Translations under genes and position numbers: made by a program
Source of the DNA: Acidimicrobiia bacterium
Lineage (GTDB): Bacteria > Actinomycetota > Acidimicrobiia > Acidimicrobiales > SHLQ01
Direction: 5' to 3'
DNA length: 64,000 nucleotides
Assembly (NCBI GenBank): GCA_033344795.1
Contig: JAWPMS010000001.1
Location: 2,344,507-2,408,506 of the forward strand
Part shown: positions 16,645 through 63,542 of the stretch, one piece after another
Numbering within the stretch: the first letter of the stretch is position 1
How the letters are laid out: each line of letters begins with the position of its first letter
Notes under the pieces: generated by a model
What the model was told of the DNA's origin: nothing
The model's database searches: none
What the model saw: the letters and a program-made list of their open reading frames with translations, nothing else

Positions 16645-16712
16645 CGGCTTCGTACCTCTCTCACACCGCGAGGAATCTCGCAGTTGCCACTACGCAACGA
16701 GTACCACACAGA

Positions 16713-16724
16713 TGCAAATTTGCA
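16713..16724. promoter_or_regulatory. perfect 12-bp palindrome TGCAAATTTGCA in divergent promoter region (candidate operator)
   Basis: Lies in an AT-rich patch of the 210-bp intergenic region between ACAD (start 16644, minus) and the A-domain gene (start 16855, plus). Confidence 0.35.
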
Positions 16725-16854
16725 ATTCGAGTTCGCCCGGCGATCCAGCACTGAAATCCTTCGTGTCCAAAAGAACTATTTGCCCTGTCTACGTTCCGCG
16801 GCACGCTGTTGGATGCGAGATATCCGACCGATTGAAGAGAGGGAGCGTGCAAAC

Positions 16855-42431: not shown

Positions 42432-42848
42432 TTAGACCGCTGAGCGCTCCATTGCCAGATTCTCGATCTGGGCGGCCAAACGTGGGCACTGATCGAGAAC
42501 CGAGTTGAACTCGCGTCGCGTCATGACGAGGATCGAGAGCTCGTCGTGTGCCTCGAGCGATGCGTTCCGGGGTTCGCCGGTGAGAAGAGCGAGCTCGCCG
42601 AGGACGGTGCCTGCTCCGACGGTGACGATGACGGCGTTGTCACGGATGACGTCGGCGGTGCCCTCGAGGACCACCACGGCCTCTTGGCCAACGGCGCCTT
42701 CGGTTGCAAATCGTTGTCCGGCAGCAAGAGTCGCAACGGTTCCCCTGCGGCTGAGGGCGACCATCTCTTGGTCGGTGAATGTATCGGCGAGTGACTGCTT
42801 GATCAGTGGGTGGATCTGGCTGTTGCGGCGTGAGCGAAGGAACGACAT
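42432..42848 (-). CDS. cyclic nucleotide-binding domain protein
   Basis: 138 aa from ATG 42848: ...GQEAVVVLEGTADV...GAGTVLGELALLTGEPRNASLEA (cNMP phosphate-binding cassette). Confidence 0.75.
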   Translation of the reverse strand: MSFLRSRRNSQIHPLIKQSLADTFTDQEMVALSRRGTVATLAAGQRFATEGAVGQEAVVVLEGTADVIRDNAVIVTVGAGTVLGELALLTGEPRNASLEAHDELSILVMTRREFNSVLDQCPRLAAQIENLAMERSAV

Positions 42849-42978
42849 GAGACGCCTCCTGGGCGTTTTGGGGGATGAATTGATCGTACGAATGAACAAC
42901 CCTTTCTTCGGACGATTTGTGCCCGGTGCCGCACGTGTCATTGGGCACCTTGCGTCGACGGTGCAGTACCGTTCGCGG

Positions 42979-45399
42979 ATGGTCGAACGGTATGTCGGAA
43001 GGTCGATGGGGCGTCCGGAGGATCCTTCCTTTCTGCGCGGCATGAGCAGGTACGTCGCCAACCTGAGATCCGAGCGAGATGATGGCCGCACGGGTGCTGC
43101 GCCCTTCGCCCACGTTGCGTTCGTGCGATCGCCGTTCGCCCACGCCCAGATCGTCGACATCGATGTTGCCGAAGCGAAGGTGGCGCCAGGAGTGCTGGCC
43201 GTTGTCACCGCCACAGATCACGACGTTGTGCCACTTGGCGCGTTGGTGGCGGAGAGCGCCACTCCGAGACACGCCATGCCACTGCTCGCAGAAGGGACAG
43301 CGCGGTACGTCGGTGAGCCGGTTGTCGCAGTCGTGGCCGAAACCGAAGCCCAAGCGGTCGACGCCACCGAGCAGGTGATCGTCGATTGGGAACCACTCGA
43401 TGCCGTGATCGACGTGAACGACGCGCTCGAAGACAACGTCGTGTTGTTCACGGCGACGAGTCGTGCTCGCTCGAGGCGGGACGACGATGGGGGGCCGGCG
43501 ACCAACGTCGTGGAAGAACACGAGGCCGGGCACGACGATGGGGGGCCGGCGACCAACGTCGTGGAAGAACACGAGGCCGGGCACGACGAGTCATGCTTCA
43601 GCGGAAGGGTGGACGTGCAGCAACGGTTCTGGAATCCGCGCCAGCTGCCGGCCCCGATCGAGCCATACGTCGAGGTGTGCGGCTGGGATGCGGCCGGACA
43701 CCTTCACGTCCAAACGTCCACCCAGAGACCGCACGGTTTTCGAGACCAGCTCGCGTCGCTCTACGAACTCGACCCGGCCCACGTGCATGTGACGGCGCCG
43801 GCCGTCGGTGGCGGGTTCGGGGGCAAGGTGAGTCGGACGTCAGAGGAGCACGTATTGCCTCTCCTGTCGCGGATCGTGGGGCGTCCTGTCCGATGGGTGC
43901 AGACGCGCAATGAGTACTTCGTCGGTGCCACTCACGGGCGCGGCGAACAGATCGACTTTCGACTCTCCGGGACTGACGATGGGCGGATCATTGCCCTCCG
44001 AGGAGACATGGTGAAGGACAGCGGGGCGTATCCAGGCGTCGGCGCCACGCTTCCGAGTCGATACACGGCGCCCGGTGCCAGTGGGCCCTACGACATTGCC
44101 CATGTCGAGTTCTCGGCTCGTTCGGTCGTGACGAATGCGCCGTCGATTTCTGCGTTTCGCGGCGCCGGACGGGCACCGTACATCGCCGCTCTCGAGCGAC
44201 TGATCGACATGTATGCGGCCCGGATTGGGATGGACCCGGCCGACGTGCGGCGCCGGAACCTGGTCCGTCGAGAACAGATGCCGTTCCTGTCGGTGACCGG
44301 GGCGACCTACGACGAAGCCGACTATGTCGGTGACCTCGATCGTGCGCTCCACGAAGTGGGTTACGACGAGCTGCGTCGCGAACAAGCTAAACGCCGCGAG
44401 AGCGCTGCAGGCTGGCAGCTGGGTATCGGCATGGCCGCCTACCATCACCAGACCGTGGGTGCCGGTGGCTCCGAGGAGGCGAGGGTGGAGATCACCCCTT
44501 CAGGTGGTGCGATGGTGTTCACCGGATCGACCTCGCAGGGCCATGGGCACGACGTGACGTGGGCGCAGATCGCCGCCGACGAACTCGGGATGCCGATCGA
44601 TCAGATCTCTGTGCACGAGGGCTCGACGTCACACACGGCAACCGGGGTTGGTGCGGTCGGCTCTCGTTCGTTGCAAACGGCAGGGGTGGCGATCATGACC
44701 GCGTCGGGGGTGCTCGTGGAGCGCGCACGGCAGGTTGCAGCGCGGCTTCTCGAAGCGGCGCCCGAGGACGTCGTGTGCACAGTCGATGGCGACGGGGGCG
44801 AGCCCGCTGCCCACTTCCACGTGGTAGGCGTTCCTTCCGTCTGGGTCGGCTGGGTCGACGTGGCCGCCGAGGTCGCTCGCTCTGACGCACCCGATGAGTT
44901 GGTGTGTGGCGAGACGCACAACGTGGGCGATCAGACGTCGTTTCCATCGGGAAGCCACGTCGCCGTGGTCGAGGTCGACATCGAGACCGGTTTCGTTCGG
45001 CTCATACGGTTCGTTGGCGTCGACGATGTGGGCAATCGTGTGAACCCGATGGTGGTCGAGGGCCAGCTGCATGGGGGAATTGCGTCGGGTCTCAGCCAGG
45101 TGTTCGGCGAGGAGATGCGCTACGACGGTGACGGCAATCCGTTGACGACGAACTTCGCGGACTATCTGATTGCCACAGCCGACCAACTCCCGATGTTCGA
45201 GCTGCACCCGTCGGTGACGTCGACCTCTTTCAATGCGCTCGGATCCAAGGGTGTGGGTGAATCGGGGACCGTCGGAGCGACTCCCGCCCTGCACAACGCG
45301 GTGATCGATGCGGTCAGCCATCTGGGGGTCGAACACATCGAACTTCCATGTACGCCGATGCGTGTTTGGCAGGCGATCAACGATGCCGGTGCCAAATAG
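42979..45399 (+). CDS. xanthine dehydrogenase/aldehyde oxidase-family molybdopterin-binding large subunit (no adjacent small or medium subunit)
   Basis: From ATG 42979: MVERYVGRSMGRPEDPSFLRG, APAVGGGFGGK, RGAGRAPY, SQGHGH, GESGTVG. The track ORF from 42505 is antisense to the cNMP gene and was trimmed. Confidence 0.85.
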   Translation: MVERYVGRSMGRPEDPSFLRGMSRYVANLRSERDDGRTGAAPFAHVAFVRSPFAHAQIVDIDVAEAKVAPGVLAVVTATDHDVVPLGALVAESATPRHAMPLLAEGTARYVGEPVVAVVAETEAQAVDATEQVIVDWEPLDAVIDVNDALEDNVVLFTATSRARSRRDDDGGPATNVVEEHEAGHDDGGPATNVVEEHEAGHDESCFSGRVDVQQRFWNPRQLPAPIEPYVEVCGWDAAGHLHVQTSTQRPHGFRDQLASLYELDPAHVHVTAPAVGGGFGGKVSRTSEEHVLPLLSRIVGRPVRWVQTRNEYFVGATHGRGEQIDFRLSGTDDGRIIALRGDMVKDSGAYPGVGATLPSRYTAPGASGPYDIAHVEFSARSVVTNAPSISAFRGAGRAPYIAALERLIDMYAARIGMDPADVRRRNLVRREQMPFLSVTGATYDEADYVGDLDRALHEVGYDELRREQAKRRESAAGWQLGIGMAAYHHQTVGAGGSEEARVEITPSGGAMVFTGSTSQGHGHDVTWAQIAADELGMPIDQISVHEGSTSHTATGVGAVGSRSLQTAGVAIMTASGVLVERARQVAARLLEAAPEDVVCTVDGDGGEPAAHFHVVGVPSVWVGWVDVAAEVARSDAPDELVCGETHNVGDQTSFPSGSHVAVVEVDIETGFVRLIRFVGVDDVGNRVNPMVVEGQLHGGIASGLSQVFGEEMRYDGDGNPLTTNFADYLIATADQLPMFELHPSVTSTSFNALGSKGVGESGTVGATPALHNAVIDAVSHLGVEHIELPCTPMRVWQAINDAGAK
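43481..43582 (+). repeat. perfect 51-bp x2 in-frame tandem duplication inside the XDH-family gene
   Basis: 43481-43531 is identical to 43532-43582, followed by a 7-nt partial third copy. Encodes DDGGPATNVVEEHEAGH twice. Confidence 0.95.
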
Positions 45400-45569: not shown

Positions 45570-46796
45570 ATGGCTGATTTCTCGCTAGATCTCAACGAAG
45601 ACCAGATCCAACTCAAGAAGTGGGTGCACGGGTTTGCCGAGGACGTCATGCGTCCCGCGGGCGAAGAGTGGGACGAGCGCGAAGAAACTCCGTGGCCAAT
45701 CATCGAAGAGGCCGCGAAGATCGGACTCTACGGCTGGGAGATCATGGCCGAGACCATGATGAATGACCCCACAGGCTTGTCGTCGATGGTGCTGCTCGAA
45801 GAGCTCTTCTGGGGCGACGCAGGTATTGCGATGTCTCTCATGGGAACTGGCCTCGCCGCCGCAGGTATCGCGGCATCGGGCACACCGGAGCAGGTCATGG
45901 AATGGGTGCCACAGATGTATGGCACCCCCGATGACATCAAGCTCGGTGCCTTCTGCTCGTCTGAGCCAGACGCCGGATCCGACGTTTCGGCGATCCGCAC
46001 CAACGCGAAGTACGACGAAGCCAAAGACGAGTGGACAATCAACGGCACCAAGACGTGGATCACCAACGGTGGCATCGCCGATGTGCATGTGGTTGTCGCC
46101 GTCGTCGACTCTGACCTCGGGACGAAGGGCCACGCGAGTTTCATCGTGCCCGCAGAAGCCAAACTCGACGGCTCACTTCGTCAAGGGCAGAAGTTCAAGA
46201 AGCACGGCATCCGGGCCAGCCACACCGCTGAGGTGATTCTCGAAGACGTCAAGGTTCCCGGCGCATTTCTCCTCGGAGGCAAAGAGCGCATGGACGAAAA
46301 GCACGCTCGCCTCCGCGAAGGCGGCGGTGGTGCGGTCAGCAATTCGGCGATGAAGACGTTCGAGTCGACCCGGCCAGCCGTTGGCGCCCAGGCCGTGGGC
46401 ATTGCTCGTGCGGCCTACGAGTACGCGCTCGAGTACGCGAAGGAGCGCGTGCAGTTCGGTCGGCCGATCATTCAGAACCAGTCGATCGCCTTCATGCTCG
46501 CCGACATGATCACCGAGATCGATGCGTCACGGTTGCTCGTGCACCGCGCAGCATGGCTGGCAAAGAACGGCGAGTTCGTGAACGCCGAAGGTTCGATGGC
46601 CAAGCTCAAGGCCGGCCGCACCGCCACCTGGGTGACCGAGCGCGCCATCCAGATTCTGGGCGGCTATGGCTACATCCGCGAGTTCCCGGTCGAGCGCTTC
46701 CATCGCGACGCCAAGATCCACGACATCTTCGAAGGCACCGAGCAGATCCAGCAGCTGGTCATCAGTCGAGCCATCTCGGGCATGCGCATCGAGTAG
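45570..46796 (+). CDS. acyl-CoA dehydrogenase
   Basis: 408 aa. GAFCSSEPDAGSD, WITNGG, canonical C-terminal IFEGTEQIQQLVISR with catalytic Glu. Confidence 0.9.
   Translation: MADFSLDLNEDQIQLKKWVHGFAEDVMRPAGEEWDEREETPWPIIEEAAKIGLYGWEIMAETMMNDPTGLSSMVLLEELFWGDAGIAMSLMGTGLAAAGIAASGTPEQVMEWVPQMYGTPDDIKLGAFCSSEPDAGSDVSAIRTNAKYDEAKDEWTINGTKTWITNGGIADVHVVVAVVDSDLGTKGHASFIVPAEAKLDGSLRQGQKFKKHGIRASHTAEVILEDVKVPGAFLLGGKERMDEKHARLREGGGGAVSNSAMKTFESTRPAVGAQAVGIARAAYEYALEYAKERVQFGRPIIQNQSIAFMLADMITEIDASRLLVHRAAWLAKNGEFVNAEGSMAKLKAGRTATWVTERAIQILGGYGYIREFPVERFHRDAKIHDIFEGTEQIQQLVISRAISGMRIE
46718..46796 (+). repeat. 79-bp direct repeat, copy A (last 26 codons plus stop of ACAD); candidate attL
   Basis: Matches 50224-50302 at 77/79 positions. 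The two differences (46765 T/C, 46768 A/G) are synonymous in the ACAD frame. Confidence 0.9.
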
Positions 46797-49812: not shown

Positions 49813-50223
49813 TTCCCGTTTATCGTCGTCCAACGACCTTGCCTGAAGGATCAAGTTGTGTTCGGTGTGCCAGTACCGGCATTCACTCTTCCCGTCGTTG
49901 TTCTGGGAGGCGCTTCTCAGATCGGAGGTGCACAGGAGGTGCACGGCACCCGCCGACAGCGGCCGGCTTCAGCCGGACACAACAGGACTGCCTGGACAAG
50001 AATCCTTGAGGACTCAGGACCTGCCGACACGACATCGCATTGGCTGGACAATTCAGGCGAGACTTAAACACCGCTTCTCTTCTGTGGCGAGCCGAGTGTC
50101 CCTAGTTTTGTCCCTAGTAACCGGTCATGCGGGACGTGACAGAACATTCCGAGATGGACGGAAACGTTGAAAACACAGCACTCAACGACACCCGGCGATA
50201 CCAGCTAGACAGGTCAGAAGGAC

Positions 50224-50302
50224 CCACGACATCTTCGAAGGCACCGAGCAGATCCAGCAGCTGGTCATCAGCCGGGCCATCTCGGGCATGCGCATCGAGT
50301 AG
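50224..50302 (+). repeat. 79-bp direct repeat, copy B (orphan copy of ACAD 3' end); candidate attR
   Basis: See copy A. No ACAD-like sequence precedes it. Confidence 0.9.
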
Positions 50303-53156: not shown

Positions 53157-53219
53157 TTCGCAACGCTGCTTCCAGGCGATCGATCGGTTGCCGTTGTCGG
53201 TGAGGATCCGTTCGATCTG
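53157..53219 (-). mobile_element. possible remnant (21 codons) of an IS481/IS3-type DDE transposase
   Basis: Reads QIERILTDNGNRSIAWKQRCE-stop, which resembles the (V/I)LTDNGS.YRS..W stretch of rve-domain transposases. Too short to be sure. Confidence 0.25.
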
Positions 53220-53226
53220 ACAGTGG

Positions 53227-53370
53227 CTAGGTAGTCCCCGACTGGTCAACCACGTCCGAAGCAGATGAGGCATCCGTCGGGTTCCGACCCGGCGGATGCC
53301 CAAGCGCCTGCAGCCCGCGTGCGAGGTCGCGCGGGCGGTGGCTTCCCACAGGGACTGGCCTTCGGACACG
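53227..53370 (-). pseudogene. orphan, frameshifted copy of the 3' end of the HD-domain gene at 56702-57403
   Basis: 53225-53307 matches 56700-56782 at 80/83, including a 63-nt perfect run. Weaker similarity continues to about 53365. Translates ...ALGHPPGRNPTDASSASDVVDQSGTT against ...ALGHPPGRNPTDASSASDVVDEPRTT. Confidence 0.6.
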
Positions 53371-54665: not shown

Positions 54666-55628
54666 CTACGTGAGCGGTCGAATCTCCGAACCGTCGTGGG
54701 AGATTTCGATTCGGTCAAAATCGTTGGCGAGGTGAAGCCCTCCTCGGAAGTGCTGTCGGGCCTCGTCGCGAACGTCGCTGATCGTCAGACCATCGCCGTG
54801 ACTTGTGTAGCGCGGGCTGAAGTGAGTGAGAACCAAATTGCGGACGCCGTTCGCCTGTGCGGCGGCTGCGACCCGCTCTGCGGTGCTGTGGCCGCGGTCG
54901 TCGCCGAGTGTTGCGAGCACCGGTTCTGTGTACGTCGCTTCATGCACAGCGACATCGGCGCCCGCCGTCGTTTCGAATAGTGCCGCTGGTGCGGCATTGT
55001 CCCCAGAGATCACGATCCGTCTACCCGGCCGCGACGGCCCCGTGACCCTGTCGGGCTTCACTGTCTGGCCGTTGGTCAGCTCGACGGACTCGCCGCGTTG
55101 GAGTTGTGCGAACATCGGTCCTTCGGGCACTCCGGCTGCGCGTGCTGCCTCGACGTTGAACTGACCGGGCCGATCTCCTTCACGCACCGACCAAGCGAGG
55201 CTCGTCACCCGGTGGGTGAGGGGTACGGCGTCGACGGTTATTGCTGCGTCGTCGATGACTCGTCCGCCGTCGGGGCTGACCTCGTGGATCTCCATTGGGT
55301 AGGCGAGGTGGGTGCTCGAAGCGGTGAGGACAGTCTCGAGCATTGCTTTCAGGCCAGGTGGTCCGTAGATCGTAAGCGGAGCGATCGTTCCGTCCATCGA
55401 TCGTGAACCAAGGAGGCCGAACAACCCGAAGCAGTGATCGCCGTGCAGGTGGCTGATGAAGATTCGCCGGAGCTTTGACAGTGAGAGCGAGGTCTTGAGC
55501 AGTTGGTGCTGGGTGGCTTCGCCACAGTCGAACAGATCCCAGTGTCCGTCGATTCGAAGTGCGAGGCCAGTGACGTTTCGCTCCATGGTGGGTGTACCCG
55601 AGGACGTACCGAGAAAGGTCAACTCCAT
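54666..55628 (-). CDS. rnz: ribonuclease Z (tRNA 3' endonuclease, MBL fold)
   Basis: MELTFLGTSSGTPT..RNVT..LFDCGEATQHQLL...ISHLHGDHCFGLFGLLGSRS...HEAT...LTHFSPRY. Collinear with B. subtilis RNase Z as I recall it. Confidence 0.85.
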   Translation of the reverse strand: MELTFLGTSSGTPTMERNVTGLALRIDGHWDLFDCGEATQHQLLKTSLSLSKLRRIFISHLHGDHCFGLFGLLGSRSMDGTIAPLTIYGPPGLKAMLETVLTASSTHLAYPMEIHEVSPDGGRVIDDAAITVDAVPLTHRVTSLAWSVREGDRPGQFNVEAARAAGVPEGPMFAQLQRGESVELTNGQTVKPDRVTGPSRPGRRIVISGDNAAPAALFETTAGADVAVHEATYTEPVLATLGDDRGHSTAERVAAAAQANGVRNLVLTHFSPRYTSHGDGLTISDVRDEARQHFRGGLHLANDFDRIEISHDGSEIRPLT

Positions 55629-55753
55629 CGCGCATGCTTAGCACGAGGCTGTTCTCGGCAGCCTTCTCCCAGTTACATCTTGACGGCACCGAGCAGCTCC
55701 GGCAGCTCGTGATCAGCGGGGCGACTGATCGCGCGCTGTGTCATGTCTGAGTG

Positions 55754-55779
55754 CTGAAACGGTGCAGAAACGGTCAGAC
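55754..55779 (+). promoter_or_regulatory. 11-bp-phased direct repeat CTGAAACGGTGCAGAAACGGTCAGAC (candidate SARP box), copy 1
   Basis: Shares AACGGTGCAGAAACGGTC (18/18) and 23/26 overall with 61041-61066. Lies about 75-95 nt upstream of the CAP-like gene start. Confidence 0.5.
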
Positions 55780-55849
55780 CTCCAAGGTGTCTTCACGCCG
55801 CATTGCGGCGCGCATCGCACGAGCGGTGACAGCAGACGGGAGAATGACC

Positions 55850-56695
55850 ATGAAGAACCAACTACACGTGCCACGTCGGGGTGCCGCCCTGCTACTCGTG
55901 GTAGCGATCGTCGGAGCGCTGACCATGTCGCTGGCACCTGCTGGGGCAGCGCCTGGTGGTGGCAAAGCAAAGGTTGGGGTCTGTCACTTCGACGATGACG
56001 GCAAGGTGAAGCTGCTGATGGTTGCCGAACGCGGGGCCAGGGCGTTGCTGCGCAAAGGCGACGTGCAACCAGGCGATGCGGTGCCTGGACTCGACGGCGT
56101 TGTCTACGACGACCAGTGTCGACCCGTGTTCCCGCACGCGCAAGTGGCGCTCGACGTCTTGAACGAGGTCAGGTTCGGCATCGATCCGCCGTGCGATCCC
56201 AACGCGGTTCCGACGCCGTGTGGGCCCGAGAACGGCGGTTTGTTGCCCCCGGTGGTGTGGGACCAGGGACTGGCCGACTTGGCCGCTCCGATCGCCGCCG
56301 CTTGTCCGGTCTTCACCCCAGGCCCGGAGGCGCACCCCGATGGCATGGCGTCGAACATCTACCTTCACTGGAGCCCCGATCCGGTCACGGACGCCGAATT
56401 GGCCGAGCTTGCCATACGAAACTGGGCCGAGAAGCAGATTCAATACAACGCGTTGACGGGCGGCTCGATTCGCAATGGCGATACGAGCCAGCTGAGCTTC
56501 GTACGCCTGATTTCGGCAACCCGCGTAGGCATGGCGGTGAAGGCCGACTGCCCGAACAACCGGGGCGTCGCGTTCATGATCCTCGACCCCGCGCCCGCCG
56601 ACGGACCTGCCTACCCGCCGATCTGCGACCTGCCGGAGTCGGAGTGGGGTTCCCGTCCTTGTGTCGCCGATCCGATTCCCTCACCCGGCGCCTGA
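55850..56695 (+). CDS. secreted CAP/SCP/PR1-like protein
   Basis: Start at ATG 55850 (GGGAGA SD): MKNQLHVPRRGAALLLVVAIVGALTMSLAPAGA signal. The C-terminal region has weak CAP-like features. Family call tentative. Confidence 0.5.
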   Translation: MKNQLHVPRRGAALLLVVAIVGALTMSLAPAGAAPGGGKAKVGVCHFDDDGKVKLLMVAERGARALLRKGDVQPGDAVPGLDGVVYDDQCRPVFPHAQVALDVLNEVRFGIDPPCDPNAVPTPCGPENGGLLPPVVWDQGLADLAAPIAAACPVFTPGPEAHPDGMASNIYLHWSPDPVTDAELAELAIRNWAEKQIQYNALTGGSIRNGDTSQLSFVRLISATRVGMAVKADCPNNRGVAFMILDPAPADGPAYPPICDLPESEWGSRPCVADPIPSPGA

Positions 56696-56701
56696 GATTG
56701 G

Positions 56702-57403
56702 CTAGGTAGTCCGCGGCTCGTCAACCACGTCCGAAGCAGATGAGGCATCCGTCGGGTTCCGACCCGGCGGATGCCCAAGCGCGTGCAATTCGCGTGCCAG
56801 GTTCCGACGGGCGGCCGATTCCCAGAGGGATTGGGCGACCGGAGTGAAGAACAGCGAGTCCCTCTCTAAGAACTGGCGGAGAACGAGTGACCTTCCAACG
56901 CGGTAGTCGGCGTCGGTGACGAGGGCGTACTCCTTGCGAATCTGTTCGGCGTAGCGGTCATAGACACGTGGTTCAGCACCGAGGATGGAAAGGTCCGCAT
57001 CGAGGAACTCTGCGGCCCCATCGAGAGGCACAAGACGATGACCGTCGGTGGCGCGAATCAGGCTTGCCACTCGCTCCACCAACTCGGCTTCGCAGTCGGC
57101 CAGTTCCTGTTCAGCGAGCTGAGCGCTGCGTTCCTCGTTGGACTCGTTGCCAGGCGGCAACGGCGAGTCGTACACCGCGTCGTGGTAGAAGGCAGCCAAT
57201 CGAAGAGCAGGATCAGCTGATGGATCGAGCACATCGAGGTGGCTAAGCACGGCCTGAACATGCTGAGCGGTGTGGTAATGCCGCTGGGGTTCGCGATGTC
57301 GAGACAGCAACGCATGTATCGCATCCGGCGGCGCACCTACGGCTGCTGTCAGCCGCTGCCATTCAGAGACCAGGAAGGCTTCGGCGTCGGAGGAACCAGT
57401 CAC
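56702..57403 (-). CDS. HD-superfamily metal-dependent phosphohydrolase-like protein (COG4339-like)
   Basis: 233 aa. REPQRHYHTAQHV, AAFYHDAVYD, NEERSA, FLDADLSILG, IRKEY pattern. Its C-terminal tail coincides with the duplicated segment. Confidence 0.65.
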   Translation of the reverse strand: MTGSSDAEAFLVSEWQRLTAAVGAPPDAIHALLSRHREPQRHYHTAQHVQAVLSHLDVLDPSADPALRLAAFYHDAVYDSPLPPGNESNEERSAQLAEQELADCEAELVERVASLIRATDGHRLVPLDGAAEFLDADLSILGAEPRVYDRYAEQIRKEYALVTDADYRVGRSLVLRQFLERDSLFFTPVAQSLWESAARRNLARELHALGHPPGRNPTDASSASDVVDEPRTT

Positions 57404-57478
57404 AGCGACAACCGTAGATCGTGACGTACGGGCGTCTACTCCACGCTAGGAACTAGTTGCCCCTAGCTCGCAGACCCG

Positions 57479-57709
57479 TCAGTCGTCGAACAGTGGTGGG
57501 TAGACGGGCCCGTCGGCTGGGGCGGGGTCGAGGATCATGAAGGCGACCCCACGGTTGTTCGGGTAATCGGCGTTGGCCCACAGCCCTACGCGAGTCGCCG
57601 AGATCAGCCGCTTGAACGAGAGGTGGCTCAGGTCACCGTTGCGGATGGCGTCGCCGAGCACGAAGCCGTCGATGCCGGGTGCCGGGTCGCCCCCTCCGCA
57701 GATCGCCAT
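57479..57709 (-). pseudogene. truncated paralog of the CAP-like gene (C-terminal about 65 codons), inverted relative to 55850-56695
   Basis: IRNGDLSHLSFKRLISATRVGLWANADYPNNRGVAFMILDPAPADGPVYPP against IRNGDTSQLSFVRLISATRVGMAVKADCPNNRGVAFMILDPAPADGPAYPP. Confidence 0.55.
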
Positions 57710-57772
57710 GGCGCAGTCGTGCTCGCGCGCCGTTTTCGGAAACCATGATGAGAATAGGTGAACGCCTTAGCG

Positions 57773-60700
57773 TCAGACCGAACGGAGTGCGGCTAACTCG
57801 ATGCTCGCAGGGTGATCCTCGAGATAGCAGCGACGCAATTCAGGATCGGTGATCGAACGGGCAGTCGCGGTTTGAATCGATTGTGCTGTCGCGATTGCAT
57901 CGACCGCCCTCGAACCATCAGCTGCATGGAACGCAGCAGCGAGGTCCAGGTGCGTCGCGACCGGCCAAGGAAGTGCCGGCGCGTCGGGCGCCGCGAGCTC
58001 GACCATGACCTCGTCGGCCAGTGCGGCGGCGCTTTCGAGTTCGCCCAAGATGGCAGCTGACCGGGCGATCAGGGCCTTGCCGGTGAGCGCGAAGTGAGAC
58101 GCCTCGCGGTCGGCCGCGATCTCGACCAGTTCCTCTGCGGCGACGATCGCTTGTTCATGTCGTCCTCGGTCCTGGAGGTGACGCACCCACGGCGGCAGGT
58201 TGTACAAGAGGCCGTAGGTGAACTTCTGCGACCGGGTCAGGGCAATGCCCTCCACGAAATCGCGTTCGCCTTCCTCATGGCGCCCCAAGCCCACGAGGCA
58301 TTCGGCGTGTTGTGCCAATGCGTAACCCTCGACCTGCAAGTCACCCGTGGAGCGAAACAGGTCGAGAGCCGTTGCGGTGTGGCGGCGCGCCCTCTCGTAG
58401 TCACCAAGGAGGACCAGCGAGGCACCCACATTGATGTGCAGCGAAGCAAGCCGCTGCCGATTGCCAATTTTCTCTGTGAGAGACATCGCAGTCGAATCGG
58501 CCACATACGCTTCCCAAACTTTGTTCTGTTCGGCGTAGGTCGGGGCGAGATAGCTGTGGGTCAACGCCTGGGCGCGTACATCGTTGGCATGTTCGAACAG
58601 TTCCAACGCTTGCCGGTACACGGCTATGGCGTCGTCGAAGCTGCCGGTCGCTGACAGCAAGCGACCTCGCTGCAACAACGACCAAGCGCGTAGCTCGGGT
58701 TCGTCCAGATCATCGAGTTGGCTTTCGGTCGCCTCGAGCATCACTGACGCTCGGGTCAGGTCACCGTCGTAGAACGCCGACTGTGCTCGGTGCAGGTTCG
58801 CCCATGCTCGGTCTGCGTCGCGCGCCGGGGCTTCGGCCAACAGTTCGTCGATGCGATCACAAAGTTCATCGACGACCGCATCCTGACTGTCGACGGCGAG
58901 AAGGCGTGCGGTGATACGACGAAAGAACGCCTCGTCGTGGTCACCGTCCGGATCGAGACGACGCTCACGAATGGCGTCCGCCGCGTCGGAGGTCAGACCC
59001 GGCGCTTCGACGACGCGGCCAGCGAGCTCGAACAGGTACCCGACACCCATTGCCGCCGAGCCGAGCTCGGAGGTGAGGCCGTGTGCGAGCGCGTACCGCC
59101 ACGCCGCTCGGACGTTGTCGAGATCGCGCACGAGCCCGTCGCTCACGGTTGGCGCCTCGCCCGAGATCAGTGTCGCTTCGGCCTCGGCGACACGGCCGAG
59201 GAACCAACGCGCGTGGGCCGTTTCGGCCGCGACGCGATCGTCGAGGCGAGCTGCCGCCGACTGCCGGAGGAGTTCGTGAAACCGAAACCTGCGGCCGCCC
59301 TCTTCGACAAGCAGTGATTTGCGTGCGAGTCGGCTTGCTTCGTGGCCACTCGAGCCGATCAAGGCATGCGCAGCCTCGCTGTCGAACCCGTCGCGGGTCA
59401 CGCTTAGGTGAGCGAGCGCGCGTTGTTCGTCGGGCTCGAGTGTGGCCCACGAGTGCTCGAACACGGCGTCGAAGGTTCGGTGCCGGTCCGGGGCGTCGCG
59501 CAGCGCCTCACCAGGCAGGTCGATCTCGCTGTGGAGCATGGCGTTCAGGTCGCCAACGCTCAACGGTCCGATGCGCGCCGCCGTGAGCTCCAGGTGCAGC
59601 GGGATCCCCTCCAATAGGCGGCACAAGCGCCCGACCTCGTCGGGATCCTCGGCTGCCAGCGAGAACGTCTTGTCGACTCGATACGCGCGGTCGGCGAAAA
59701 GCCTCACGGCCGGTGATTCGGCAATGTCAGAAGCGCCAGGTTCTGGGGTCTCCAAACCGCAGAGAACGAAAAGATCTTCGCTGCTCACTTCGAGGGGCTC
59801 TCGCGACGTCGTAAGGAGTCGTAGCCCAGAACAGCCTTGAAGCAGGGCCACGACCGTGTCGCGTGCGTCATCTACGAGGTGCTCGAAGTTGTCGAGCACG
59901 AGGCACATGCGTTTGTCGCCGATCAGTTCGATCACGCGATCTCGGGGTTCGGCCGCGCTTTGGACCGCATCGGGAGCGATGGCGTCGAATACCGCCGACA
60001 ACATTTCGGCCTCGGAGGCGACCGATGCGAGTGAAAGGAAGAACACGCCGGCGGGGTGAGCTTCGACACTTGCCCTCGCAGCCTCGGCTGCGAGGCGAGT
60101 CTTGCCGACACCGCCCGGGCCCACGATCGTCATCAGGCGGTAGTCGCCACGCTTCAGTCGTTCGCCCAACAAGCTCAGCTCGAGTTCTCGACCGAAGAAC
60201 GGCGTCAGGTCGGTGGGAATGCCGACGGTTCTCGTCGTCTCCTCAGCGGGTGTTTGCGTCGTGCCGGCGACGATCTGATCGAGCACCGCAGTTGTGTCGG
60301 GTGAGGGTGTGAGGCCGAGCTCGTTCCAAAGAACGCTGGCGCACACCTCGTACTGCGCGTGGGCTGCAGCCGGTCCACTGATCGATGCCATCGCGATCAT
60401 CAGGTGTTGGTGCGCTACCTCGTGCCACGGTTCGATCTCGAGGATGCGCTGGGCGCAGTCGCGACACCGGGTGAGATCGTCAGCGCTTAGCGAGTCAGCG
60501 CTCGCCTTCGTCAACGCCTGCAACGCGGTCGCCTGGAGGTTCTGACGACGGGCGGCCGCCCAGTCCTCGAACAGTTCCGCTCCCTCGATGGTGAGAGCGT
60601 TGAGGAAGTCTCCTAGGTACCGATCCAACACGGCGTCGGCTTGTTCATCTGAGGCTGCGTCGTCGATCGTCGAGGCGTCGTAGTCCACCGATGTCGAGAT

Positions 60701-60994
60701 CCACACACGGTCACGATCGGCGCCGATGTGGTTGCCGGCCACCGCTCGGAGTCGCGTGAGCGCAACGCGAAGGTTGGCACGAGCGCGTTCGTCCGGCATA
60801 TCCGACCAGAGCAGGCCTGCTAAGACTCCCCGGCGAACGGGTCCGCCCGCGTCCGCCAGGTACACGAGCAACAGTGCGGCCTTGTCAGGTATCCGCGCAT
60901 CGACGCGTTGACCATCGATCGCAATTCGAAGATCGCCGAGGGCTGACACCCGAAGAGGCGTCGTCCTCGTTTGCTCTTGTTCCCCCGCACCCAC
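57773..60994 (-). CDS. SARP/AfsR-type transcriptional regulator (winged-helix + BTAD + NB-ARC P-loop + TPR)
   Basis: 1073 aa. N-terminal LRVSALGDLRIAIDG...ANLRVALTRLR, BTAD LDRYLGDFL, Walker A GPGGVGKTRLA, long C-terminal TPR-like repeats. Confidence 0.85.
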   Translation of the reverse strand: MGAGEQEQTRTTPLRVSALGDLRIAIDGQRVDARIPDKAALLLVYLADAGGPVRRGVLAGLLWSDMPDERARANLRVALTRLRAVAGNHIGADRDRVWISTSVDYDASTIDDAASDEQADAVLDRYLGDFLNALTIEGAELFEDWAAARRQNLQATALQALTKASADSLSADDLTRCRDCAQRILEIEPWHEVAHQHLMIAMASISGPAAAHAQYEVCASVLWNELGLTPSPDTTAVLDQIVAGTTQTPAEETTRTVGIPTDLTPFFGRELELSLLGERLKRGDYRLMTIVGPGGVGKTRLAAEAARASVEAHPAGVFFLSLASVASEAEMLSAVFDAIAPDAVQSAAEPRDRVIELIGDKRMCLVLDNFEHLVDDARDTVVALLQGCSGLRLLTTSREPLEVSSEDLFVLCGLETPEPGASDIAESPAVRLFADRAYRVDKTFSLAAEDPDEVGRLCRLLEGIPLHLELTAARIGPLSVGDLNAMLHSEIDLPGEALRDAPDRHRTFDAVFEHSWATLEPDEQRALAHLSVTRDGFDSEAAHALIGSSGHEASRLARKSLLVEEGGRRFRFHELLRQSAAARLDDRVAAETAHARWFLGRVAEAEATLISGEAPTVSDGLVRDLDNVRAAWRYALAHGLTSELGSAAMGVGYLFELAGRVVEAPGLTSDAADAIRERRLDPDGDHDEAFFRRITARLLAVDSQDAVVDELCDRIDELLAEAPARDADRAWANLHRAQSAFYDGDLTRASVMLEATESQLDDLDEPELRAWSLLQRGRLLSATGSFDDAIAVYRQALELFEHANDVRAQALTHSYLAPTYAEQNKVWEAYVADSTAMSLTEKIGNRQRLASLHINVGASLVLLGDYERARRHTATALDLFRSTGDLQVEGYALAQHAECLVGLGRHEEGERDFVEGIALTRSQKFTYGLLYNLPPWVRHLQDRGRHEQAIVAAEELVEIAADREASHFALTGKALIARSAAILGELESAAALADEVMVELAAPDAPALPWPVATHLDLAAAFHAADGSRAVDAIATAQSIQTATARSITDPELRRCYLEDHPASIELAALRSV

Positions 60995-61040
60995 GGGCAG
61001 ATCTTAGAGAACGATGGGCCGCATCCACGCTTCGAGGCAT

Positions 61041-61066
61041 CTGTAACGGTGCAGAAACGGTCGGTC
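61041..61066 (+). promoter_or_regulatory. 11-bp-phased direct repeat CTGTAACGGTGCAGAAACGGTCGGTC (candidate SARP box), copy 2
   Basis: Lies in the 119-bp divergent region between the SARP gene and the acyl-CoA ligase gene. Ends 47 nt before ATG 61114. Confidence 0.5.
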
Positions 61067-61113
61067 TGCAGAGTGGTTCGTAGCAGATCCAAACAGCAAG
61101 AAGGTGGGAACCA

Positions 61114-62691
61114 ATGAACACACAAATTCTGTACACCAGCCCGAATCCAGCTATCGAGATCCCGGAGACGTCGCTCCATGAACTGATCCTGGACGGTGCC
61201 CGCGGTCGGGCAGACTCGGTAGCGCTCGTCGACGCGATGAGCGGAGCGTCGCTGACATACGGTGACCTCGCCGGACAGATCGAGCGTGTCGCGGCCGGCC
61301 TCGTCGACGCCGGGCTCGACAAAGGGGACGTCGTCGCGATCATCAGCGCGAACTGCATCGAATACCCGGTCGCGTGCCTGGGGGTGATGGCCGCCGGTGG
61401 CGTCGTATCGGGCGTGAACCCGACCTACACGAGCGGTGAGCTCGTACACCAGCTCACCGATGCGGGCGCGACTAGAGCGATCGTTGCCGACATGTTCTTG
61501 CCCGCTGTCCAAGCGATCAAGGCCGACGCTGGGATTGATCAGATCTACGTCTTCGGAGCGGGTTCGGGAGACGGCGTTGAAGCATTCTCGAGTCTGGTTG
61601 ATCACGACCTGCCTGCCGCATCGGTTGGCGTTGACCCCGACGACCTCGCAGCCTTGCCTTACTCGTCGGGAACGACGGGACGGTCGAAGGGAGTTCGCCT
61701 CACCCACCGCAACCTCGTCGCCAACCTGCGGCAATCCAACGACATGCTGGCGCTCACATCCGACAACACGGTGATGGCGTTCCTTCCCATGTTTCACATC
61801 ATGGGATTCGCGGTCATCACGATGGGTGGTCTCGACGCAGGCGTCACACTCGTCACGATCCCGACGTTCGAGCCGCAGCTGTTCTGTCAGACAATCCAGG
61901 ATCACCGCGTCAACACGCTCTACGTCGTGCCTCCCGTGGTGAACTTTCTCGCCGGCCACCCGCTGGTTGACCAATACGATCTGTCGAGTATCGAGCTGCT
62001 CGGCAGCGGCGCCGCACCCTTGGGCGCAGACATGGAGGCCGCCGTGGCGGCGCGCCTCGGTTGCCTCGTTGGTCAGGGGTTTGGCATGACCGAGGTAGCG
62101 GGCACCTCGACCTTGCCTCGCAAGCTCGGGGAGGGGGTGTTCGACCTCCGCCCGGGTTCATCGGGTCAACTCATTTCCAGCATGGAGGCACTGATCATCG
62201 ACCCGGAGTCCGGCGAGTCGCTCGGTCCATACGAGACCGGTGAGTTGTGGGTCCGGGGGCCGAACTGCTTTGACGGCTACCTCAACAACGCAGACGCAAC
62301 AGCCGAGACGATCGACGGCGACGGCTGGTTGCACACCGGCGACTTGTGCCACTTCGACGACGACGGCTACCTCTTCGTGACCGATCGCCTGAAGGAGCTG
62401 ATCAAGGTCAAGGGCTTCCAAGTAGCGCCAGCTGAGCTCGAGGCGCTTCTGATCACTCATCCGAACGTGTCCGACGTTGCCGTTGTCGGACGCCCCGACG
62501 ATCGCTCTGGAGAAGTCCCCGTGGCGCACGTCGTGCCAAACGGTGAACTCGACATCGACGAACTTCGGCGTTGGGTGGCCGACCAGGTGGCCGACTACAA
62601 GCAGCTCGCCGATGTCGTGATTGCCGAGGCGATTCCAAAGAACCCATCGGGCAAGATCTTGCGCCGCGAACTTCGCTCGGCGGTGGTCTGA
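61114..62691 (+). CDS. AMP-dependent acyl-CoA synthetase/ligase (4-coumarate-CoA ligase-like)
   Basis: 525 aa. LPYSSGTTGRSKGV, GFGMTE, WLHTGDL, DRLKELIKVKGFQVAPAELE, PSGKILRR. Confidence 0.9.
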   Translation: MNTQILYTSPNPAIEIPETSLHELILDGARGRADSVALVDAMSGASLTYGDLAGQIERVAAGLVDAGLDKGDVVAIISANCIEYPVACLGVMAAGGVVSGVNPTYTSGELVHQLTDAGATRAIVADMFLPAVQAIKADAGIDQIYVFGAGSGDGVEAFSSLVDHDLPAASVGVDPDDLAALPYSSGTTGRSKGVRLTHRNLVANLRQSNDMLALTSDNTVMAFLPMFHIMGFAVITMGGLDAGVTLVTIPTFEPQLFCQTIQDHRVNTLYVVPPVVNFLAGHPLVDQYDLSSIELLGSGAAPLGADMEAAVAARLGCLVGQGFGMTEVAGTSTLPRKLGEGVFDLRPGSSGQLISSMEALIIDPESGESLGPYETGELWVRGPNCFDGYLNNADATAETIDGDGWLHTGDLCHFDDDGYLFVTDRLKELIKVKGFQVAPAELEALLITHPNVSDVAVVGRPDDRSGEVPVAHVVPNGELDIDELRRWVADQVADYKQLADVVIAEAIPKNPSGKILRRELRSAVV

Positions 62692-62693
62692 TC

Positions 62694-63542
62694 ATGGCGG
62701 CCCAGCCAATGAGTCAGCGCCCGCAGGTCGGCACGTTCACGACGGTCGAGGTCGTTGCCCAACTACGGGAGTCGGCAGACCGGTTTGCGAACCTGGTTCC
62801 ACGGATCACCGACGAGGCGGCGGTGTCACCCCACCTCCCGGACTGGCCGGTGAGCGAAATCGTGCGCCACGTCACGATCCTGCCGGACTACTACCAGGAG
62901 ATTGCCGCTGGCAACGCCGAGCTGATCGACGAGGCCACCGACATGGCGTCAAAGAACACGCAGAACATCGCCCGTATTGAAGGCCTTTCGCTTTCGGAGT
63001 GTGCAGAGCACATGATCCACGGGATCGATGCTTTCTGTCGGGTGGTCGAAGCGGACGATGGGCAGAGCCTCGTCGACTTCCACGCTGGGTCGACGGGAAC
63101 GCTGACCCAGATCGCAGCGATTGCCGTGGGGGAGTACGAAGTACATGGCCTCGACCTTGCGGCCGCGTTGGGCGTGCCATGGCAGATAGAGCGAAATGGT
63201 GCTGCGATGTGCATCCTCGGTGCGCTTCCCGTCGCCGGTACGCAGTGGCTCGACGCCGAGGCTGTCGCGGGCCACTCGGGGAGTTATCGGATCAAACTTC
63301 GTGGTGGCTCTGGTGCGGTCCACGTGAGCTTCAGCGATGGAGCAGCTCGGATCTGCGGATCGCCAGACACCGCAGCTTCGGAGCCAGCGTCCACGTTGAT
63401 AAGTGCAGACCCGGTCGCATTCCTGAAGGTGTTCTACCGCCGTCAATCGCAGTGGGCAGCCATTGCCCGGGCGCAGATGCTCTCGTACGGAACCAAGCCG
63501 CTACGGGCGCTGACGCTGAAGGACAAGTTCTTGCCAATCTGA
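62694..63542 (+). CDS. DinB/MDMPI-like (mycothiol-dependent isomerase N-terminal domain family) protein
   Basis: From ATG 62694, 2 nt after the ligase stop. N-terminal LRESADRFANLV...WPVSEIVRHV pattern. The track ORF from 62571 overlaps the ligase and was trimmed. Confidence 0.55.
   Translation: MAAQPMSQRPQVGTFTTVEVVAQLRESADRFANLVPRITDEAAVSPHLPDWPVSEIVRHVTILPDYYQEIAAGNAELIDEATDMASKNTQNIARIEGLSLSECAEHMIHGIDAFCRVVEADDGQSLVDFHAGSTGTLTQIAAIAVGEYEVHGLDLAAALGVPWQIERNGAAMCILGALPVAGTQWLDAEAVAGHSGSYRIKLRGGSGAVHVSFSDGAARICGSPDTAASEPASTLISADPVAFLKVFYRRQSQWAAIARAQMLSYGTKPLRALTLKDKFLPI

Follow-up and report, generated by a model that had tools for sequence, protein, structure and literature searches.

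Two Phased Repeats Flank the Gene for a SARP Regulator

A gene for a large SARP regulator lies between two genes, one for a secreted CAP-like protein and one for an acyl-CoA ligase, whose upstream regions carry nearly the same short motif. The locus raises the question of whether the two motifs are the regulator's own binding sites and whether it activates both genes through them. We analyzed the window, that is, the whole 64-kb stretch of DNA, together with related loci. The genes and motifs concerned are as follows.

55757-55774, + strand: candidate SARP box copy 1, AAACGGT-gcag-AAACGGT (extended match 55754-55779)
55850-56695, + strand: CAP-like gene (candidate target 1), encoding a secreted protein of 281 aa with a signal peptide and a CAP/PR-1 fold
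57773-60994, - strand: AfsR-type large SARP regulator of 1073 aa (OmpR-type wHTH, BTAD, NB-ARC/P-loop NOD, TPR)
61044-61061, + strand: candidate SARP box copy 2, TAACGGT-gcag-AAACGGT, in the 119-bp divergent region and directed toward the ligase
61114-62691, + strand: acyl-CoA (AMP-binding) ligase (candidate target 2a; Pfam AMP-binding, E = 1e-85)
62694-63542, + strand: DinB-like MDMPI_N + SCP2 protein (candidate target 2b; TIGR03083 domain, below cut-off)

An earlier note on this DNA had quoted two 26-mers, at 55754-55779 and 61041-61066, and re-reading of the sequence bore this out: they are identical at 23 of 26 positions and share a core of 18/18. The core, AACGGTGCAGAAACGGTC, lies exactly at 55758-55775 and 61045-61062; these are its only two copies in the 64-kb window, in which no third was found even with three mismatches allowed. 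Each copy consists of two (A/T)AACGGT heptamers in direct repeat, AAACGGT at 55757-55763 and 55768-55774 in copy 1, and TAACGGT at 61044-61050 followed by AAACGGT at 61055-61061 in copy 2, so that the spacing is exactly 11 bp in both, as the note had read it. The gene geometry given there likewise held, with the SARP start at 60994 (- strand), the ligase ATG at 61114, a gap of 119 bp between them, and the CAP-like ATG at 55850; both copies point the same way as the gene downstream. The likeness between the two promoter regions ends at about 26 bp.

The same note had regarded chance recurrence of an 18-mer in 64 kb as very unlikely, which was overstated. At least one exact 18-mer repeat on either strand occurred in 26.5% of 200 first-order Markov simulations of the window, and an analytic estimate gave about 0.16 repeated pairs expected. 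Recurrence of the 18-mer alone is thus weak evidence. The pattern AACGGT-N5-AACGGT with at most one mismatch was found twice in the window against 0.22 expected, and 1 of 100 shuffles reached two; no further box site with two or fewer mismatches was present in the 64-kb window (the genome is 4.87 Mb). What decides in favor of the motif is its conservation across genomes.

The Regulator Is of the AfsR Type

In an AF2 model of SARP residues 1-260 (pLDDT 91.4), the only PDB matches with E < 1e-3 by Foldseek were the SARP domains of AfsR and EmbR, and phmmer aligned residues 15-98 to the EmbR wHTH. Pfam Trans_reg_C matched the N terminus below threshold (E = 0.089), and BTAD matched residues 117-241 with E = 1.2e-12 (48.8 bits; cut-off 22.1). 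NB-ARC, AAA_16, AAA_22, and NACHT matches at residues 265-399 correspond to a P-loop STAND ATPase/NOD, and TPR_12 and TPR_MalT matches were found at residues 728-850. The profile of the SARP family matched full-length AfsR (8K60) with E = 6.5e-33, covering AfsR residues 18-620 and 738-932. Among 16 orthologues, the recognition-helix region is the best-conserved part of the protein (66% versus 47% overall). Orthology to AfsR itself was rejected, the NCBIfam AfsR equivalog model giving 68.9 bits against a cut-off of 1430.

The regulator gene has a putative promoter of its own.

61001-61006, - strand: putative -10 of the SARP gene, TAAGAT, 6 nt before the GTG start

The short distance between this element and the GTG implies a leaderless mRNA. 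In 8 of 10 SARP loci, the called start codon of the SARP gene is preceded, at 6-9 nt, by a TANNNT hexamer. Locus L002 would match this spacing too, if its gene truly starts at an in-frame upstream GTG that was read by eye.

Candidate Target Genes and Their Promoters

The CAP-like protein matched Pfam CAP only at E = 0.0087; its AF2 model has a pLDDT of 69.7, and the top Foldseek matches in the PDB are all CAP/PR-1 proteins. The family is small, with only 9 clusters among 5.8 billion proteins. The ligase matched an NCBIfam long-chain-fatty-acid-CoA ligase subfamily below its cut-off and is 78% identical to the L002 orthologue. The ATG of the DinB-like gene follows the ligase stop codon by 2 bp, which places the two in the same operon, and the pair of ligase and MDMPI_N genes is kept in L002, L093, and L094. 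No recognizable biosynthetic cluster was found among the boxed genes, and the only NRPS in the window (18713-26692), 31 kb away, has no box.

Characterized SARP promoters carry direct heptamer repeats 11 bp apart, the 3' repeat lying 8 bp from the -10 element (PMC10936776). A SARP-box promoter is expected to have at least two such repeats, at a spacing of 11 or 22 bp. The corresponding candidate elements in the window are these.

55783-55788, + strand: putative -10 of the CAP-like gene, CAAGGT, 8 bp past the 3' repeat
61069-61074, + strand: putative -10 of the ligase, CAGAGT, 7 bp past the 3' repeat (the 8-bp register reads AGAGTG)

A sigma-70 consensus promoter with a -35 element was not found upstream of the CAP-like gene, nor was a consensus sigma-70 promoter found upstream of the ligase. 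L094 has CAGGGT at 8 bp, and the spacer of the window ligase thus looks 1 bp shorter.

The Box Is Conserved in Position among Related Acidimicrobiia

We compared the window with 12 fetched loci of uncultured Acidimicrobiia relatives, whose SARPs are 41-56% identical. Altogether 17 box sites were found, two in the window and 15 in 11-12 related loci, all resembling AAACGGT-N4-AAACGGT, with the proviso that orthologous sites are not fully independent. The 11-bp direct repeat is present at both window sites and at 15 of 15 sites in the relatives, and three sites have a third in-phase unit. Every one of the 17 is followed, 18-123 bp downstream, by the start codon of a gene in the same orientation, and that gene is never the SARP. 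A predicted NANNNT hexamer follows exactly 8 bp downstream at 16 of 17 sites, copy 1 included, and at 7 bp in copy 2. The consensus per 11-bp repeat comprises eight conserved positions, (G/A)AAACGGT, and then three variable ones.

The box was found upstream of the ligase/DinB-like operon in four genomes, and no other block is invariant in the aligned promoters of the four orthologous ligases. It also precedes the CAP-like gene in all six orthologues with upstream DNA (the window, L002, L004, L090, L091, and L093), whether that gene adjoins the SARP, lies 8 kb from it (L004), or is on a contig without a SARP gene. In a sister clade, an O-methyltransferase gene stands divergent from the SARP, and the box beside the SARP is kept there in five genomes. 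The boxed genes overall are the ligase, DinB-like, CAP-like, O-methyltransferase, Monooxy_af470-like, and TSP3/HYR genes; the motif holds the same promoter register upstream of five gene families, the intergenic DNA of the relatives being otherwise unalignable. In two orthologue loci the promoter divergent from the SARP has no box: the sole box of L004 is the one at the CAP-like gene, 8 kb off, and in L001 a box occurs only downstream of the SARP. Boxes with 0-1 mismatch numbered 9 in 189 kb of orthologous loci and 0 in 1.43 Mb around 80 unrelated SARPs (actinobacterial and Chloroflexi).

Because related Acidimicrobiia keep the motif in the same promoter position, the boxes are very probably the regulator's own sites. 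The earlier note had proposed SARP boxes, and what this predicts of the sequence, namely a SARP domain, phased repeats, a promoter position, and conservation, was found in each respect. We estimate a probability of roughly 0.75 that both motifs are cognate boxes of the adjoining 1073-aa SARP and that it activates both targets as AfsR does.

Other Explanations for the Boxes

It is improbable that the sites are real operators of another OmpR/PhoB-family winged-helix regulator, for example a GlnR-like orphan response regulator, with the SARP as a bystander or co-regulator. GlnR boxes are 11-bp-phased direct repeats for an OmpR-family domain, with the consensus gTnAc-n6-GaAAc in S. coelicolor and t/gTAAC-n6-Gc/aAAC in M. 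smegmatis (PMC10704036, Table 2). Copy 2 (GTAAC-GGTGCA-GAAAC) and copy 1 (GAAAC-GGTGCA-GAAAC) fit these published consensuses, copy 2 literally, which makes another OmpR-family binder formally possible, and the L090 boxes are on a 6.3-kb contig that carries no SARP gene. However, the CGGT that runs into the GlnR "n6" is nearly invariant in this family, and only 3 of 17 first units have the a-site T. Across the 17 sites, the first three bases of the GlnR "spacer", GGT, vary little or not at all after the first unit, and most sites have them after the second as well. Nor are the boxed targets nitrogen genes. The box lies over the -35 position, 8 bp from the putative -10, which is the layout of SARP promoters and unlike that of GlnR boxes; it remains beside the SARP gene when the neighboring gene changes; and it is absent from the 1.43 Mb of other loci, which are from actinobacteria and Chloroflexi.

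Slightly less probable again is that the SARP does bind the boxes but chiefly regulates its own leaderless promoter on the divergent side, or represses by occluding promoters. Copy 2 lies about 50-67 bp upstream of the putative SARP start, L094 carries in addition an inverted unit that faces the SARP gene, 8 bp from a TACCGT hexamer, and the 7-bp spacing at the window ligase site is off-register. Against this, 17 of 17 boxes point at a gene other than the SARP, and those at CAP-like genes do not adjoin a SARP start. Moreover, target promoters with no -35 and a weak -10 are typical of activator dependence, and characterized SARPs are activators (PMC10936776).

Chance recurrence or a dispersed non-regulatory repeat (a MITE or a recombination scar) is close to refuted. 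In its favor, about 26% of composition-matched random windows have such an 18-mer, and the area has been rearranged, with a CAP-like remnant, a direct repeat of 111 nt, and three acyl-CoA dehydrogenase 3' ends. Against it, the likeness stops at about 26 bp, the 64-kb window has two copies and no more, the motif stands in one promoter register before five gene families in 12 related loci, and none occurs in the 1.43-Mb control. Within the 64-kb window a mobile element was likewise rejected, both copies being in promoters and in the orientation of the gene.

Proposed Mechanism and Known Systems

We infer from the sequence that the SARP binds the boxes and activates rather than represses. Its direct targets in this genome would be the acyl-CoA ligase/DinB-like-SCP2 operon (61114-63542) and the secreted CAP/PR-1-like gene (55850-56695). 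By analogy with AfsR, two SARP domains would sit side by side, one per repeat, over the would-be -35 position, and would present an alternative surface on which sigma region 4 and the RNAP core could dock ("sigma adaptation"). The regulator may in this way turn on a promoter that lacks a -35 and has only a weak -10, (C/G)ANNNT. Until ATP, and perhaps also a ligand, binds, the SARP domain is probably held inhibited by the NB-ARC and TPR part.

The nearest known system is AfsR with its afs box at the afsS promoter of Streptomyces coelicolor (8HVR, 8K60, 8JKE), the best fold match of the window SARP. AfsR has the same domain order, an OmpR-type DNA-binding domain, BTAD, NOD, and TPR, and the afs box also comprises two 11-bp direct repeats, with eight conserved and three free positions; it lies over the -35 before a weak -10, the place predicted for the window boxes. 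Of the 11 bp in each repeat, the first 8 are contacted by AfsR and the last 3 are not (PMC10936776). The two proteins are, however, only about 22% identical in the SARP domain, and the afs box is unrelated in sequence to (G/A)AAACGGT. As read from alignments, the base-contacting T88 of AfsR is V77 in the window protein, and the conserved R72 and N74 of the window family are L83 and A85 in AfsR. The host also differs, being an uncultured Acidimicrobiia bacterium, and the window targets are neither afsS nor an antibiotic cluster.

The small SARPs ActII-ORF4 and DnrI likewise have direct heptamer repeats at 11-bp spacing, and 8 bp separate the 3' repeat from the -10 (PMC10936776). Their targets adjoin the regulator gene, as in the window; unlike the window protein, they are without NOD and TPR and control recognizable biosynthetic clusters. 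Small cluster-situated SARPs such as these have repeats of the TCGAG type. EmbR of Mycobacterium tuberculosis (2FEZ, 2FF4) shares the SARP fold (Foldseek E = 3e-8 to 2e-7; profile E = 1e-8) and is likewise a SARP outside Streptomyces that regulates non-antibiotic genes, but it has a C-terminal FHA domain in place of NOD and TPR. The GlnR boxes, alike in phasing, differ in the fixed CGGT and mostly missing a-site T of the window family, and in position relative to the -10, target functions, and linkage to the SARP gene.

The regulator and its boxes would be a further example of a well-known kind of switch. With more reserve than for the activation of the two targets, we lean toward a wider reading, in which Ilumatobacteraceae-like Acidimicrobiia have a lineage-restricted STAND regulator of the AfsR type that acts through a box not described before, (G/A)AAACGGT-N3 in two or three copies, and the regulon under its control is very small and evolutionarily mobile. 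The box would move with its targets, the CAP-like gene having been relocated and inverted together with its still intact box and the ancestral copy having decayed, and targets would have been swapped between clades (the ligase/DinB-like operon versus the O-methyltransferase). If so, a SARP box and its regulon would here be defined for the first time outside classical actinomycetes, as far as the literature was searched, and the outputs of the regulon would be a secreted CAP/PR-1-type protein and small-molecule-modifying enzymes, not an antibiotic cluster.

Rearrangement around the Locus

The position that the CAP-like gene would have held ancestrally is marked by the following feature.

57485-57752, - strand: remnant of a CAP-like gene, decayed to a pseudogene, immediately downstream of the stop codon of the SARP gene

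By tblastn, the remnant matches CAP-like residues 202-260 at 75% identity (E = 1e-22) and residues 55-91 in other frames. L002, L091, and L093 have an intact CAP-like gene at this position. An inverted repeat, I1, is associated with the remnant, and the rearranged area also contains a direct repeat of 111 nt. The 3' end of an acyl-CoA dehydrogenase gene is present in three copies, one of which stops 7 bp before box 1.

Phased repeats in two promoter regions

Re-reading the window confirmed both the positions and the letters of the two 26-mers described in the earlier note. The AACGGTGCAGAAACGGTC core that they were said to share recurred exactly at 55758–55775 and 61045–61062, with no third match in the window even when 3 mismatches were allowed, and the 11-bp heptamer period was found in both copies. 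Copy 1 consists of AAACGGT at 55757–63 and AAACGGT at 55768–74, and copy 2 of TAACGGT at 61044–50 and AAACGGT at 61055–61. The genes around them are as follows.

Genes neighboring the two repeats
54666–55628 (-), RNase Z (family match)
55850–56695 (+), secreted 281-aa protein, CAP-like (weak Pfam match and predicted fold)
56702–57403 (-), 233-aa protein (no family match)
57773–60994 (-), 1073-aa regulator, the SARP, with BTAD, NB-ARC/AAA and TPR domains (domain matches)
61114–62691 (+), AMP-binding acyl-CoA ligase (domain matches)
62694–63542 (+), MDMPI_N (DinB-like) + SCP2 protein (domain matches; ATG 2 bp past the ligase stop codon)

A region-versus-region comparison showed that the two promoter regions are alike over ~26 bp only; the flanks do not align, and duplication of a larger promoter segment was therefore ruled out. 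Inspected by eye, neither copy has a further in-phase unit on its upstream side (2/7 matches). No further box with ≤2 mismatches was present in the window, and a relaxed motif scan (≤4 mismatches) gave no additional credible site, so the candidate regulon visible in the window comprises two promoters.

Recurrence of the 18-mer had been considered very unlikely to arise by chance, an argument that proved overstated: among 200 composition-matched 64-kb simulations, in which any exact repeated 18-mer was counted, 26.5% contained one. The phased pattern AACGGT-N5-AACGGT was observed 2 times in the window versus 0.22 expected, and 2 occurrences were reached in 1/100 shuffles. The argument for the box is independent of this recurrence statistic and stands on cross-genome data.

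For the secreted 281-aa protein, the Pfam CAP match reached only E = 0.0087. The label CAP-like is right, because the top PDB matches of its AF2 model (pLDDT 69.7) are CAP/PR-1 proteins only. This CAP/PR-1-fold family is extremely narrow (9 clusters in a set of 5.8 billion proteins), its members all seem to share the lineage of the SARP orthologues, and a scan of metagenome contigs with the CAP-like alignment revealed no relatives. JGI data contributed no close SARP orthologue.

The box is co-conserved with the regulator

We compared 12 loci around orthologues of the SARP and of the CAP-like protein, in which sites were sought as AAACGGT-N4-AAACGGT with few mismatches allowed. This yielded 17 box sites in total, including the window's two.

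Genes downstream of boxes in the window and in loci from relatives (L numbers)
Ligase/MDMPI_N operon, divergent from the SARP gene: window, L002, L093, L094
CAP-like gene: window, L002, L004, L090, L091, L093
O-methyltransferase, divergent from the SARP gene (sister clade): L086, L087, L088, L089, L095
657-aa TSP3/HYR protein: L001
Monooxy_af470-like gene: L090 (weaker box)

Every CAP-like orthologue having upstream DNA carries a box (46–82% identity to the window protein), and when the four ligase promoters were aligned, the box was the sole invariant block. All 17 boxes are directed towards the downstream gene and lie 18–123 bp before its start codon; a third unit is present in the ligase boxes of L002 and L093 and in L095. 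A hexamer whose second base is A and whose sixth is T follows 8 bp past the 3' heptamer in 16/17 sites, the lone exception being the window ligase site, with CAGAGT at 7 bp.

A contig scan with a whole-protein SARP alignment settled on the P-loop peptide, and the matches listed contained no orthologues, only distant SARPs (24–39% identity; Chloroflexi, Streptomyces and others). Their 80 loci (1.43 Mb) were therefore reused as a negative control. These loci around unrelated SARPs held no box with 0–1 mismatch and three with 2 mismatches, whereas the first 189 kb of orthologous loci held nine and two, respectively. Comparative genomics thus supports, at the sequence level, the earlier reading of the repeats as candidate SARP boxes.

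A 158-aa Monooxy_af470-like gene accompanies the CAP-like gene in several relatives (L090 1071 (-), L002 ~14125–14142 (+), L093 8454–8930, L091 959–1266), either directly downstream and co-transcribed with it or with its own degenerate box and a TAGGTT hexamer. Like the gene in L090, its L002 orthologue is preceded by a weak box; the 64-kb window lacks this gene.

Promoter layout and regulator resemble those of AfsR

In SARP target promoters, direct repeats are spaced by 11 or 22 bp, and 8 bp separate the 3' repeat from the -10 element; AfsR places two SARP domains next to each other on the DNA, each touching the initial 8 bp of its 11-bp repeat but not the final 3, and the pair replaces the contact that sigma region 4 makes with a -35 element (PMC10936776). 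Column counts over the 17 sites matched this pattern: (G/A)AAACGGT makes up 8 conserved positions, and the next 3 vary. Neither window promoter region contains a consensus sigma-70 -35/-10 pair, which fits activator dependence, although this is weak evidence. A terminator scan of both regions found nothing, and an Rfam scan of 55500–61300 gave no match, so that an RNA element is not indicated. Hairpins occur in the predicted 5' UTRs of CAP-like genes, at 55797–55811 in the window (GCCGC-att-GCGGC), at 13216–13255 in L002 and at the equivalent place in L093; those of L002 and L093 have a longer stem that overlaps the ribosome-binding site.

The SARP N-terminus aligns with the EmbR winged helix and the AfsR SARP domain, and an AF2 model of residues 1–260 (pLDDT 91.4) had significant structural matches to AfsR and EmbR only. 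A profile of 16 SARP orthologues matched full-length AfsR (8K60) with E = 6.5e-33 across the SARP, NOD and TPR parts. Orthology to AfsR was rejected (69 bits with the NCBIfam AfsR model versus a cut-off of 1430). The orthologues form ~20 clusters, 41–56% identical, from Ilumatobacteraceae-like MAGs and metagenomes, and their best-conserved part is the recognition-helix region W63–V85 (66% identity versus 47% overall). By positions read off alignments, the base-reading T88 of AfsR corresponds to V77 in the window SARP, and AfsR L83 and A85 are replaced by R72 and N74, which are conserved in its family, R72 invariantly. These differences at base-reading positions fit a different recognition sequence.

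We propose that the SARP would bind the boxes as a dimer, joined by another protomer at three-unit boxes, and would activate the ligase/DinB-like operon and the CAP-like gene from promoters with a weak -10 and no -35 element. As in AfsR, ATP, perhaps together with a ligand, may act on the NOD and TPR domains to lift autoinhibition.

Autoregulation or repression may be an additional role. A TANNNT hexamer lies 6–9 nt before the called SARP start codon in 8/10 loci (window 61001–61006 (-), L001, L086–L089, L094, L095); L002 fits too if an in-frame upstream GTG, noted by eye, is the real start, and L004 does not fit. This spacing implies that SARP mRNAs are probably leaderless, with a predicted -10 element stronger than the (C/G)ANNNT of the boxed target promoters. 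In L094 there is one additional AAACGGT unit, inverted and followed 8 bp downstream by the hexamer TACCGT; it is directed at the SARP gene, which makes autoregulation conceivable there. The L094 ligase also looks leaderless (-10 CAGGGT, 7 nt, ATG; 3761–3800 and 3809 (+)).

Binding of the boxes by a GlnR-like OmpR-family protein would agree with copy 2, which resembles published GlnR boxes (GTAAC-n6-GAAAC; PMC10704036). However, the conserved positions differ, CGGT being fixed and the a-site T occurring in just 3/17 first units, and the box position relative to the -10 element, the functions of the target genes and the linkage of the box to the SARP gene all speak against such a protein. A chance or dispersed repeat, considered over the 64 kb of this genome that were scanned, is effectively excluded by the cross-genome box data.

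Defined boxes are known for few SARPs, and to our knowledge work on these regulators has been almost confined to Streptomyces, where they are antibiotic-cluster switches. In the literature searched, we found no prior description linking SARPs with Acidimicrobiia or Ilumatobacter, or AAACGGT with a SARP. What is new is a probable SARP box with a small predicted regulon in Acidimicrobiia; the kind of switch is already known. Backed by comparative genomics, the prediction of box and regulon in this uncultured lineage is clean and comes with an explicit site table usable for EMSA, DAP-seq and reporter work. Far beyond Streptomyces, a different recognition sequence retains the AfsR geometry (per repeat, 8 conserved and 3 free bp; predicted -10 at 8 bp), and an AfsR-type regulator is linked to a secreted bacterial CAP/PR-1 protein. 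The value lies in annotation and SARP specificity work; the concept is unchanged.

Rearrangement of the locus

Directly past the SARP stop codon, tblastn revealed a decayed CAP-like remnant (57485–57752 (-)), in which residues 202–260 are 75% identical and residues 55–91 lie in other frames, with an internal deletion and an inverted repeat. In L002, L091 and L093 an intact CAP-like gene occupies this position, where its box overlaps the SARP stop codon, and 57485–57752 is the ancestral position of the gene. The window's intact copy is found ~1 kb beyond this position, oppositely oriented and with its box intact. The box has thus remained with the gene, which argues for function.

The 3' end of an acyl-CoA dehydrogenase gene (45570–46796) exists in three copies (46715–46796, 50221–50302 and 55682–55722; 96% and 85% identity), and the stop codon of the last remnant (ORF end 55670–55750) lies 7 bp before box 1. 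This looks like successive ~3.5- and ~5.4-kb insertions that regenerated the gene end each time. Another rearrangement scar is a 111-nt direct repeat (53217–53327 and 56692–56802; 91% identity, spacing 3475 bp), which repeats the 3'-terminal part of the 233-aa gene; between its two copies lie a 426-aa ORF, RNase Z, box 1 and the CAP-like gene.

Elsewhere in the window, a two-module NRPS of 2659 aa (Condensation, AMP-binding, PP-binding, Thioesterase; 18713–26692 (+)) follows a stand-alone AMP-binding protein (16480–18462 (+)). No box lies near the NRPS, and 31 kb, including housekeeping genes such as ValRS, separate it from the SARP gene. A molybdopterin oxidoreductase (xanthine dehydrogenase-like) gene (42505–45399) carries a 51-bp tandem duplication in perfect phase (43478–43579 (+); 98% identity) that adds 17 residues in frame.
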